From: Candidatus Micrarchaeota archaeon
GTDB taxonomy: Archaea > Micrarchaeota > Micrarchaeia > Micrarchaeales > Micrarchaeaceae
Direction of reading: 5' to 3'
DNA: 24,193 nt
Assembly: GCA_021812205.1 (NCBI GenBank)
Contig: JAKAOJ010000001.1
Coordinates: forward strand, 1 to 24,193
The notes below the pieces were generated by a model that was not told the origin of the DNA, did no database searches, and saw only the letters and a program-made list of their open reading frames with translations. Shown one piece after another: positions 3,138-20,172 of this stretch (positions within the stretch are counted from its first letter, which is position 1; every line of letters begins with the position of its first letter). Made by a program: the position numbers and the translations under genes.

Positions 3138-4244
3138 TCACTTCGCCAGGCCCCTAAGCAGGAACCTCTTCAGCATCTTTGTAGGGCTGTCCATGTCGCC
3201 GTACTTGCTCAGGAAAGCCTCTGCGCCGAACAGCCTAGACACCTTTATCAGTGCCTCAAAGCTGCCCGGGCCCATATTGGAATAGTAGTTATGCAGGGCC
3301 CTGTGCAGCTTAAGGTCAGCGCCGTAAGCCTTGCGCCACTCGCTTTCATATGTCGAAAGCGGCACGCCTCGCTCTGCATGGCGCATTATGACCCCGGCAG
3401 CAATCTTGGCGCATGAAGCTCCGAATATTATTCCGCCGCCTGTTGTCGCCTTGACCTGTCCTGCCGCGTCTCCCACAAGCAGCACGTTGCCTCGTACGGT
3501 CATGCGCCGCGCCTCCAGTGGTATGATGCTGGCGTGGCCTGCAACCATCTTTGCCTCGCCTATCATCGCGCTTACCTCTTTGTCCTTCGTGAAGCTGTGG
3601 AACGCATCAGAGCTGCTGCGTTTCCCGCGGTCGCTGGTCCCTATGCCCAGCTCAAGCTCGTAGCTCGAGTATGGGGCAATCCAGCCGAAGAACCTGTGCG
3701 AATGCCCGGTGGCGAAGAAAAGGTCGACCGAATGGCTGTCCTCAGCTTCCGCCTCCTCATACTCTGCTTTGTAGGTAAGCACATACTCCCCTATTGGCGG
3801 GAAGCCGAATGCAGATGCGACCGTGGACACAGCGCCGTCTGCGCCTACCACTATGTTATCGCCATCTGCCGCAAGCTCCTTTAGCTCCTGCCTCTCCATC
3901 CTGGAGCCCAGCCTGACCTTCGCACCCGCCTTTTCGGCTTCAGATTTGCAGATTGACGCAAGCGCCGCCCTGTCCAGCACATAGGCCTGCGTCGCCTTTG
4001 ACTTTATCCTAAGCTTCTCCCTCCCTGCGTGTAGCACTGCGCCGTCCAGCTCATTGACTATTGCGTTCCTGTAGTCGACGCCCATGTGCGCCAGGCCGCT
4101 CTTGGAGAGTATGCCGGATGCTTTTTCCGCCCCGTCCTCCACGCTACTCTTGCCATCGTACACCTGCACGTCCGCACCGAGCGAAGCCAGGTCCTTCGCC
4201 AGCATCAGGCCCACTACCCCAGCGCCTACTATCGTTACCCTCAT
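3138..4244 (-). CDS. Geranylgeranyl reductase family FAD-dependent oxidoreductase (likely digeranylgeranylglycerophospholipid reductase)
   Basis: Rossmann motif IVGAGVVG, plus GADG, FFGWIAP and LVGDAAGQVKATTGGGI. Confidence 0.85.
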   Translation of the reverse strand: MRVTIVGAGVVGLMLAKDLASLGADVQVYDGKSSVEDGAEKASGILSKSGLAHMGVDYRNAIVNELDGAVLHAGREKLRIKSKATQAYVLDRAALASICKSEAEKAGAKVRLGSRMERQELKELAADGDNIVVGADGAVSTVASAFGFPPIGEYVLTYKAEYEEAEAEDSHSVDLFFATGHSHRFFGWIAPYSSYELELGIGTSDRGKRSSSDAFHSFTKDKEVSAMIGEAKMVAGHASIIPLEARRMTVRGNVLLVGDAAGQVKATTGGGIIFGASCAKIAAGVIMRHAERGVPLSTYESEWRKAYGADLKLHRALHNYYSNMGPGSFEALIKVSRLFGAEAFLSKYGDMDSPTKMLKRFLLRGLAK

Positions 4245-9145: not shown

Positions 9146-9258
9146 CGGGCCCGGCGGGATTTGAACCCGCGACCGTCAGCTTTCCCCGCGCTTCTTGACG
9201 AATTGTCAAAGAAGTCTCATAGAAGGCTGCTGCTCTGTCCAAGCTGAGCTACGGGCCC
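9146..9258 (-). tRNA. tRNA-Arg(UCU) with a 38-nt intron at position 37/38. CCA is not encoded.
   Basis: Acceptor stem GGGCCCG/CGGGCCC, D arm GCTC/GAGC, anticodon loop CT-TCT-A|A, T arm GCGGG-TTCAAAT-CCCGC. The intron forms a bulge-helix-bulge (CUUC:GGGG helix; UA^U and AA^A bulges) and an internal hairpin. The anticodon stem has a G27-A43 mismatch. Confidence 0.93.
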
Positions 9259-18616: not shown

Positions 18617-18940
18617 TCACTTGAGGTTCCTGTCTATCCACGCCCTGAGCGTCTCCTTAGGCACTGCCCCAACGTTCTGGGCCTTCACCTGCCCCCTCAC
18701 GAACAGGAGTGTCGTCGGTATGCTCATTATGCCGTACTTCTCTGCTATGCTCTGATTCTCGTCGGCGTCTATCTTCACGAACTTGATCTTGCCCTCATAT
18801 TGCCCGGAAACCTCCTCTATTATTGGAGAGAATATGCGGCACGGACCACACCACGTGGCCCACACGTCGGCGACTACGGGCACATCAGACTTCAGGACTT
18901 CCGATTCAAATGTTTTCTCAGTAACGTCTATAACGCTCAT
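18617..18940 (-). CDS. trxA: Thioredoxin
   Basis: WATWCGPC active site, cis-Pro motif SIPT, SD GGTGA. Confidence 0.97.
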   Translation of the reverse strand: MSVIDVTEKTFESEVLKSDVPVVADVWATWCGPCRIFSPIIEEVSGQYEGKIKFVKIDADENQSIAEKYGIMSIPTTLLFVRGQVKAQNVGAVPKETLRAWIDRNLK

Positions 18941-19063: not shown

Positions 19064-19071
19064 TTTTAAGA
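19064..19071 (+). promoter_or_regulatory. TATA-like box for the C/D sRNA-histone transcript
   Basis: TTTTAAGA lies about 20 nt upstream of box C. Confidence 0.5.
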
Positions 19072-19089: not shown

Positions 19090-19146
19090 CTGTGATGATT
19101 TTTGCGATCCTGAGCCATGCGATGATGAGGATCTTGAGTGCTGAAA
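19090..19146 (+). ncRNA. Box C/D methylation-guide sRNA
   Basis: Box C GTGATGA (19092-98), 11-nt guide TTTTTGCGATC, box D' CTGA (19110-13), box C' ATGATGA (19122-28), 12-nt guide GGATCTTGAGTG, box D CTGA (19141-44). All four boxes are consensus with canonical archaeal spacing. The ends are approximate. Confidence 0.9.
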
Positions 19147-19156
19147 AGTGCTTTCC

Positions 19157-19372
19157 ATGAAGATATCAAAGGCGGAGGTGAAGAGGTTCGTCAGGACGAG
19201 GTTCGGCGTCACAATAGAGGATGATGCGGCAGAGGAGATGGCGAGGATGCTTGAGAGCAAGGCCTCAGCCATAGCAAAGTTTGCGGTAGAGCACTCAAAG
19301 AACGGCCATGGCAAGCGTAAGGCGGTGTGTGCGGACGACGTCTACGCATACAAGCTCAAGTTCGGGGATTAG
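19157..19372 (+). CDS. Archaeal histone-fold protein (divergent HMf-type), 71 aa
   Basis: Aligns by eye to the HMf pattern: ISKAEVKRFVR / IEDDAAEEMARMLE...IAKFAVEH / RKAVCADDV, retaining the R-x6-D salt bridge. Confidence 0.8.
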   Translation: MKISKAEVKRFVRTRFGVTIEDDAAEEMARMLESKASAIAKFAVEHSKNGHGKRKAVCADDVYAYKLKFGD

Positions 19373-19918
19373 GTGGATGCTGCAGTGTCAGAAAGCCCTG
19401 AGCACTCTGTGCGCCTGGACTACGCGGAAGGCAGCGCCAGCATAACACTTCTGTGGGAGCCAATGCCTGACAACTGCGTACTGGAGACCAAGTTCAGCAG
19501 CACCGGCGCAATACTTGACCAGCAGCTGGTCAGGCTCTCGTCATCGACCCTGAAGGGAATGGTTGACACCTTCATGGAGCAGCACTCATTGGAGCCTAGG
19601 GAAACAGTGTTCGAGGAGCCCAGGCTGGAGGCTGCATGCCCGTCATGTGGCTCGCACGACATCGTGCGCTACATAAAAGCCGCGAAAGGCTCAAAAAGCG
19701 TGCCAGTGATGCCGATGTACGCATGCAGGAACTGCGGCGCCAAGAGCTACTACCTTACTGACGAATACCTGAAGAAGCTGGTCCGGCAGAATCCTGGCCT
19801 GTTTGAAGGCAAGGACCTCGGAGAGCTCGACAAGAACGAGGAAAGGTTTATAAAAGAGCTACGAGAGTATATAGCTAGGGTCTTTGCCTCAAAGAAAATA
19901 CTGAGCGCAAGGCCGTAA
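19373..19918 (+). CDS. Hypothetical protein with C4 zinc ribbon
   Basis: CPSC...CRNC. GTG start directly abuts the histone TAG. Confidence 0.7.
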   Translation: MDAAVSESPEHSVRLDYAEGSASITLLWEPMPDNCVLETKFSSTGAILDQQLVRLSSSTLKGMVDTFMEQHSLEPRETVFEEPRLEAACPSCGSHDIVRYIKAAKGSKSVPVMPMYACRNCGAKSYYLTDEYLKKLVRQNPGLFEGKDLGELDKNEERFIKELREYIARVFASKKILSARP

Positions 19919-19932
19919 CACGCGGCGATGAC

Positions 19933-20172
19933 ATGACGCTTCTATCAGACCTTTACGGCAAGCAGATAATCACTACAACAGGCAACAAGCTTGGCCTGGT
20001 GGAGGACGTGATCCTTGATTTTGAGACTGGCTCGATAGCAAACCTGCTCCTCACAAAGATAGAGAACCTCACCAGGGCGCAGAACACTGCCGCTGAGCTC
20101 AGGAAGAATAGCGTGGCCTACGAGCGCGTGAGGAACGTCTCAGAGACCATAATAGTCAGCACTTCAAAGTAG
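19933..20172 (+). CDS. PRC-barrel domain protein
   Basis: LSDLYGKQIITTTGNKLGLVEDVILDFETGSI...VRNVSETIIV is the typical archaeal stand-alone PRC-barrel pattern. Confidence 0.88.
   Translation: MTLLSDLYGKQIITTTGNKLGLVEDVILDFETGSIANLLLTKIENLTRAQNTAAELRKNSVAYERVRNVSETIIVSTSK

Follow-up and report, generated by a model that had tools for sequence, protein, structure and literature searches.

The stretch between a thioredoxin gene (18617–18940, − strand) and a histone-fold gene (19157–19372, + strand) of a Micrarchaeota genome raises two questions: whether it encodes a guide RNA of the box C/D type and, if so, which RNA this guide is aimed at. The stretch belongs to the window, by which we mean the whole 24,193 nt of DNA that was analysed; the MAG it comes from has 69 contigs, of which the window is contig 21, amounts to 406 kb and is 59% complete. 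Genomes of its relatives measure 0.5–1.7 Mb. Its CysRS found its best matches at 55–62% identity, and nearly all of these bear the label Candidatus Micrarchaeota or Micrarchaeia.

Architecture of the sRNA

Four perfect boxes were found at 19092–19144 (+), in the order C, D', C', D, with guide spacers of 11 and 12 nt. They had already been recognised in a first-pass annotation of the sequence, whose limits for the element, 19090–19146, lie within 2 nt of the boxes and whose guide strings agree equally well. Box C (GTGATGA, 19092–19098, +) fits the RUGAUGA consensus. It is followed by the 11-nt D' guide TTTTTGCGATC (19099–19109, +), which is without a convincing target, and by box D' (CTGA, 19110–19113, +). 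Boxes D' and C' (ATGATGA, 19122–19128, +) are separated by an 8-nt spacer, GCCATGCG (19114–19121, +), which constitutes the loop of the internal K-loop and is 3 to 11 nt long in relatives. Next comes the 12-nt D guide GGATCTTGAGTG (19129–19140, +), with its core at 19130–19139, and the element is closed by the terminal box D (CTGA, 19141–19144, +). All four boxes are kept in relatives.

G19136 is the N+5 base, that is the fifth nucleotide upstream of box D, as had been counted correctly in the first reading. In the pairing described below G19136 faces C34 of tRNA-Leu(CAA) and G19129, at the other end of the guide, faces C41. Terminal C and D boxes together with internal D' and C' boxes set apart by a short spacer are the arrangement of an archaeal box C/D sRNA. 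The 11- and 12-nt guide spacers also agree with this class, as guide spacers are constrained to about 12 nt in archaeal C/D RNPs (PMC7229835).

A strict four-box pattern matched once when both strands of the 406-kb MAG were searched; the reversed sequence gave no match. With a relaxed pattern, three matches were obtained, versus none in the reversed sequence. A chance origin of the four-box arrangement is excluded. Genes for the three core proteins of the C/D RNP, whose presence had been proposed as a check in the first-pass annotation, were all detected in the MAG above the Pfam cut-offs (fibrillarin, 261.6 bits; Nop5, 149.5 bits; L7Ae, 91.9 bits). Judged by its sequence, the element is a real, conserved and unannotated archaeal box C/D sRNA.

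The D guide is complementary to the anticodon arm of tRNA-Leu(CAA)

The wobble base C34 of tRNA-Leu(CAA) had been proposed as the target of the D guide. A search of the 406-kb MAG, 59% complete, with ARAGORN and pattern scans did not find this tRNA and, because the MAG's own tRNA-Leu(CAA) and rRNAs are unassembled, the target was examined in relatives. ARAGORN misses the relatives' genes as well, owing to an insert in the T-loop, and they were retrieved by pattern instead.

The anticodon arm of tRNA-Leu(CAA) reads G30-A31-C32-U33-C34-A35-A36-G37-A38-U39-C40-C/U41, and its positions 31–40 were ACUCAAGAUC in 25 out of 25 genes retrieved from the same genus and order. The guide core (19130–19139) is the exact complement of A31–C40 in these tRNAs, with C34 at N+5. 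When the guide of the window was joined to the tRNA-Leu(CAA) of two genomes of the same genus, G002 and G003, 11 contiguous Watson-Crick pairs were formed, from A31 to C41, G19136 being opposite C34. In the relatives' tRNA, the duplex thus has the at least nine contiguous Watson-Crick pairs with a stable RNA, and the Watson-Crick pair at N+5, that are expected of a functional guide. It also has what defines a guide of the sR47 type, namely a box-D guide directed against the tRNA-Leu(CAA) arm with C34 at N+5.

The complement, ACTCAAGATC, was present at least twice per genome in most near-complete relatives, versus about 0.2 times per genome in the control. One of the copies is the sRNA gene and the other lies in tRNA-Leu(CAA). 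A scan of the whole G003 genome (same genus, 95% complete) returned tRNA-Leu(CAA) as the sole exact complement of the core besides the sRNA gene. Conservation covers exactly 10 nt (positions 2–11), and archaeal C/D RNPs accept up to 10 paired nucleotides (PMC7229835). Covariation lends no support to the pairing, since guide and target are both invariant.

The proposed assignment of the D guide to C34 is therefore supported by the exact complement found in relatives, by the invariant core and by the three core-protein genes. It is opposed by the fact that Cm34 of tRNA-Leu(CAA), although predicted, went unreported for the tRNAs covered by a mass-spectrometric study of P. furiosus (PMC7668247). 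Taken together, the element is very likely to be an archaeal box C/D sRNA, about 53 nt long, that acts in trans and would direct Cm34 of tRNA-Leu(CAA).

Most of the relatives' tRNA-Leu(CAA) genes contain an insert of about 8–16 nt inside the T-loop, part of which can pair with the T-arm GUUCA. The loci concerned are L051 (G003:C1:267125–267535), L052, L054–L056, L059–L061, L065–L066 and L068–L070. The insert looks like a non-canonical intron, and it is absent in a few genomes (G029, G006 and G037).

Conservation of the guide across Micrarchaeota and its loss in one genus

Of 61 relatives from the genus, family and order, 58 gave matches at E≤10 in a BLAST search with 81 nt around the element, the weakest of these matches being at chance level. 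For the second family of the order, the matches were 95–100% identical and limited to the C'-guide-D stretch. Thirty-four copies of the element were extracted. The core GATCTTGAGT (positions 2–11 upstream of box D) was identical in all 34, although its invariance is partly circular because some of the copies were located via the 10-mer itself. The boxes were kept, whereas guide positions 1 and 12, the D'-C' spacer and the entire D' guide varied.

Of the 301 genomes sampled from the phylum, 170 contained the 18-nt pattern GA-N-GATCTTGAGT-N-CTGA, which joins the end of C', the guide and box D; the reversed control gave no match. Positives comprised 64 of the 74 genomes of the own family, 50 of the 54 of the second family of the order, and members of several other families of the class; such genome counts overstate the independent observations, because kin are not independent. 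Some of the genomes negative for the pattern carry the guide behind a C' box that ends in T (for instance G002, G003, G008, G018 and G035). Guides of C/D sRNAs usually turn over fast, so that an invariant guide across a class is unusual.

One genus, g22, has lost the sRNA. In its two genomes (G024, 94% complete, and G274) the leader of the histone gene is devoid of C' and D boxes and retains the TATA-like box; the decayed leaders are found at L222 (G024:C9:69614–72817) and L221 (G274:C6:1–2422), and the tRNA at L209 and L208. Position 37 of tRNA-Leu(CAA), elsewhere always G, is A in g22. No compensating guide GATTTTGAGT next to CTGA was found in the g22 genomes, nor was the usual guide found elsewhere in G024 and G274. 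This coincidence, which represents a single evolutionary event, would fit a functional link between sRNA and tRNA.

Proposed mode of action and comparison with known systems

We infer the expression of the sRNA, the assembly of its RNP, the methylation of C34 and the effect on decoding as follows. The sRNA would be transcribed, probably as part of the histone-fold primary transcript, from the TATA-like box located 28 nt upstream of box C. Both the C/D K-turn and the C'/D' K-loop would be bound by L7Ae and then joined by two fibrillarins and a dimer of Nop5, and the resulting protein coat would set the ends of the mature sRNA. The D-guide core would then pair with A31–C40 of tRNA-Leu(CAA), opening the 3' strand of the anticodon stem, and fibrillarin would methylate the 2'-OH of C34, opposite G19136, to give Cm34. 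By analogy with other Cm34 tRNAs, the modification should lock the wobble C to the reading of UUG only.

This kind of guide is not new. Its experimentally studied equivalent is sR47 of P. abyssi, the D guide of which directs the methylation of C34 in tRNA-Leu(CAA) in vitro (PMC3413156; PMC7994747). The two sRNAs share their architecture, a box-D guide with C34 at N+5, dependence on L7Ae, Nop5 and fibrillarin, and the target sequence, as the sR47 substrate oligonucleotide includes the identical ACUCAAGAUCC (PMC3413156). They differ in their hosts, hyperthermophilic Thermococcales for sR47 and mesophilic or acidophilic DPANN Micrarchaeota here, and also in that the Micrarchaeota sRNA has a labile D' guide and a fixed place as leader of a histone-fold gene. 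The likeness is one of guide and target, the Micrarchaeota sRNA being known from sequence alone, and it may reflect either common descent or convergence on the same tRNA. Since the mechanism is textbook knowledge and has been demonstrated before, for sR47 of Pyrococcus, what is learned here is modest.

Cm34 is also placed at a tRNA wobble position by the C/D guide of the pre-tRNA-Trp intron (Haloferax volcanii; sR50 in Pyrococcus). That guide resides within the intron of its own target and has U39 as a second target, whereas the Micrarchaeota sRNA is free-standing and encoded far from its tRNA. In bacteria and eukaryotes, Cm34 of tRNA-Leu(CAA), presumably with the same decoding role, is made by TrmL and Trm7/FTSJ1, respectively (PMC4615657, PMC3763551). 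These are, in contrast, stand-alone enzymes that recognise the tRNA directly without a guide, and TrmL modifies tRNA-Leu(UAA) as well. A further parallel is offered by the Pyrobaculum guides sR26 (C34-Trp), sR27 (U34-Gln), sR45 (C34-Val) and sR46 (U34-Thr), each with one unique target in an anticodon loop (PMC6009581). The other guide of such single-target wobble sRNAs is often an orphan (PMC6009581; PMC7994747), as is probably the case here. The Pyrobaculum guides, however, act on other tRNAs and form one-genus families, whereas the Micrarchaeota guide is spread across a whole class.

No paper linking Micrarchaeota with fibrillarin was found in the literature searched, and just one that connects DPANN with box sRNAs. 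The sRNA gene is invisible to annotation based on ORFs or on Rfam thresholds, and adding it improves the annotation of Micrarchaeota. It indicates that a very reduced DPANN lineage keeps the machinery for RNA-guided methylation and devotes at least one guide to the wobble position of a tRNA, and it provides a concrete prediction that can be tested, Cm34 in tRNA-Leu(CAA).

An intron was also seen in the relatives' tRNA-Trp(CCA) (G003:C2:39296–39434; L217, G024:C2:98950–99300), a gene that ARAGORN labels as tRNA-Arg(cct). It is about 66 nt long, has boxes resembling those of C/D RNAs and contains a GATGATGA box followed by a stretch that resembles the complement of the tRNA's own anticodon arm, as in the intron guide of euryarchaeal tRNA-Trp.

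The sRNA at the head of the histone-fold gene

A TATA-like box, TTTTAA (19064–19069, +), identified by inspection, starts 28 nt upstream of box C and is the probable promoter of a transcript comprising the sRNA and the histone-fold gene. Inspection of 34 relatives revealed, in most of them, an A/T-rich TATA-like element about 22–31 nt upstream of box C. The histone-fold gene itself (19157–19372, +; PF00808, 23.8 bits for a cut-off of 21.4) begins 12 nt downstream of box D. A similar small ORF, recognised by inspection from its N-terminal K-I-S/P-K...K-K motif, follows box D at a distance of 0–22 nt in nearly all relatives examined. Because the TATA-like box precedes box C and the histone ORF adjoins box D, the histone-fold gene is probably co-transcribed with the sRNA, and co-transcription followed by protein-defined trimming is the most likely course. 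Such a route has been proposed for many archaeal sRNAs (PMC7994747).

Downstream of the histone-fold gene, at 19373–20172 (+), a zinc-ribbon protein and then a PRC-barrel protein are encoded, with gaps of 0 and 14 nt. The sRNA and the three genes probably form one operon, headed by the sRNA.

This arrangement suggests an additional role, in which the C/D element would also act in cis as a leader of the histone-fold mRNA, the assembly of L7Ae or of the whole sRNP, or the excision of the sRNA, setting translation or stability. The constant order of TATA-like box, C/D element and histone ORF in nearly all relatives examined speaks for it; as the ORF begins 0–22 nt after box D, neither a terminator nor a second promoter could be fitted in between. 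So does the persistence of a decayed leader and of the promoter in the genus that lost the boxes. Moreover, an sRNA overlapping the 5' end of a gene lowered downstream expression in a reporter study (PMC7994747), and RIP-seq evidence, as outlined in PMC5539422, suggests translational regulation by L7Ae. On the other hand, many archaeal sRNAs ride on neighbouring transcripts without regulatory meaning (PMC7994747), and it is the tRNA, not the histone gene, that accounts for the invariance of the 10-nt guide. We consider a cis role unlikely, though less so than any of the other alternatives below. Somewhat more doubtful is the stronger version, in which the sRNA would be both the Cm34 guide and an obligatory cis leader, with C/D RNP assembly or excision at the 5' end setting the amount of histone-fold protein. 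If true, the leader role would couple the supply of L7Ae, Nop5 and fibrillarin to the expression of a chromatin protein in Micrarchaeota, and the class-wide arrangement of sRNA and histone gene would have been selected for this coupling, not only for the sharing of a promoter.

The D' guide is labile

Besides the D guide, to which we ascribe the methylation of C34, the sRNA carries the D' guide, whose information content across relatives is about 0–0.66 bit per position. When one mismatch or G.U pair at most was allowed, the 10-nt core of this guide matched nowhere in the tRNAs and rRNAs of G003 or in the rRNAs of G002, G025 and G013. In the species of the window, the D' guide is most likely an orphan, or else it recognises a site specific to the lineage. 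An orphan second guide is common among tRNA-targeting sRNAs (PMC7994747).

A candidate for such a site is a variable 23S hairpin (CGUCGCAAAAGG, LSU 1423–1434 in G002), in which a G would stand at N+5. No other LSU site matched the D' core better in any of the four relatives tested, and in three of these the hairpin ranked first among all rRNA matches; the duplex with G002 consists of 8 Watson-Crick pairs flanked by G.U pairs, and the three bases that vary among relatives are those that decide the fit. Yet none of the relatives offers a perfect 10-bp duplex, an A.C mismatch occurs in G003, and the D' guides of other genera do not track their own sequence at the site. The hairpin is thus a doubtful target.

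A different D' guide, AAAGAGAGTCAG, is carried by the sister species G002 (L013) and G003 (C2:93768–93822). It has a perfect 11-bp match to 23S rRNA, in the helix 69 region (L082 and L081, LSU ~1909), and its N+5 position falls near E. coli C1920 in a hand alignment. The first-pass annotation had envisaged that one sRNA might modify both a tRNA and the small subunit rRNA. The idea of a tRNA combined with an rRNA holds in G002 and G003, but the rRNA concerned there is 23S and not 16S.

The isoacceptor tRNA-Leu(UAA)

The sRNA might also act on tRNA-Leu(UAA), either by methylating U34 or by binding only. In the MAG (C29 ~3910, −) and in G003, this tRNA has the arm ACUUAAGAUC, the same as that of tRNA-Leu(CAA) except for U34, so that the guide core would form 9 Watson-Crick pairs and one G.U pair with it. 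A separate guide of the UAA type was not found in G003, and bacterial TrmL serves both leucine isoacceptors (PMC4615657). However, N+5 is the very position of the G.U pair, and methylation is reported to depend strictly on a Watson-Crick pair there (PMC6009581); moreover, Pyrococcus has separate sRNAs for tRNA-Leu(CAA) and tRNA-Leu(UAA) (PMC7994747). We regard a second leucine target as improbable.

The tRNA-Leu(UAA) genes (G000, this MAG, C29 ~3850–3990, −; G003:C2:62304–62889) are peculiar in that the sequence 5' of the anticodon arm is unlike a normal D-arm, and in the ARAGORN model of the G003 region an intron of 504 nt interrupts the tRNA. The oddity may correspond to a large or non-canonical intron, or to a split gene.

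Helix 27 of 16S rRNA

For the D' guide, the first-pass annotation had suggested methylation of the G of the GCAA loop in 16S helix 27. The rRNA of the MAG is limited to the first 101 nt of 16S, at a contig end, helix 27 and 23S being unassembled, and the comparison was made with relatives; the pairing scores for helix 27 given here (G002, G025) may be off by one position. The 16S of G025, of the same family, would pair through GAUCGCAAGG by 8 Watson-Crick and 2 G.U pairs. In the 16S of G002, of the same genus, GGCCGCAAGG leads instead to a C.A mismatch three positions from box D' and to three G.U pairs. Furthermore, the D' guide of G025 itself differs and does not match its own helix 27, and the D' guide changes from genus to genus whereas helix 27 is nearly constant. 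For G001, the closest relative, helix 27 is unassembled as well; the pattern search for it gave just a chance match, and the 16S alignment breaks immediately 3' of this helix. The mismatch in the same-genus 16S and the lability of the D' guide across genera leave the suggestion unsupported, and we hold it to be very improbable.

The complete 16S genes of relatives (L075–L079, from G025, G013, G002, G003 and G001) are 1.9–2.0 kb long versus 1478 positions in the model, which points to insertions or introns. The resemblance between the G001 and G002 genes sets in abruptly just 3' of helix 27.

Rfam classification and other RNA genes

In a local search, the Rfam model RF00095 (snoPyro_CD), built from Pyrococcus sRNAs, aligned with the element end to end at 30.1 bits (E 2e-4), below the gathering threshold of 45 bits. 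Because of this score and of the Pyrococcus origin of the model, the sRNA was not filed under RF00095. Folded as naked RNA, it was no more stable than its shuffles (z = −0.19); a stable fold is not expected of C/D sRNAs in the absence of their proteins. A chance arrangement of boxes or a functionless dead relic, with which the sub-threshold Rfam score and the fold would agree, is a negligible prospect, given the zero matches in reversed controls and a conservation pattern that already contradicts it, boxes and guide being kept across the class while adjoining positions drift.

Two further four-box C/D sRNAs were noticed in the MAG, at G000:C13:2799–2847 (−) and G000:C38:1000–1055 (+), with homologues in the congener G003 at C3:75488–75543 (+) and C3:6870–6925 (−). 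A quick scan gave no perfect rRNA or tRNA target for either of them. The lineage seems to have just a handful of C/D guides.

The window also contains, at 9146–9258 (−), an intron-containing tRNA that scored 53.1 bits over 113 nt with Rfam. It was missed by ARAGORN under default settings, and a search allowing introns identified it as tRNA-Gln(ctg) with a 36-nt intron.
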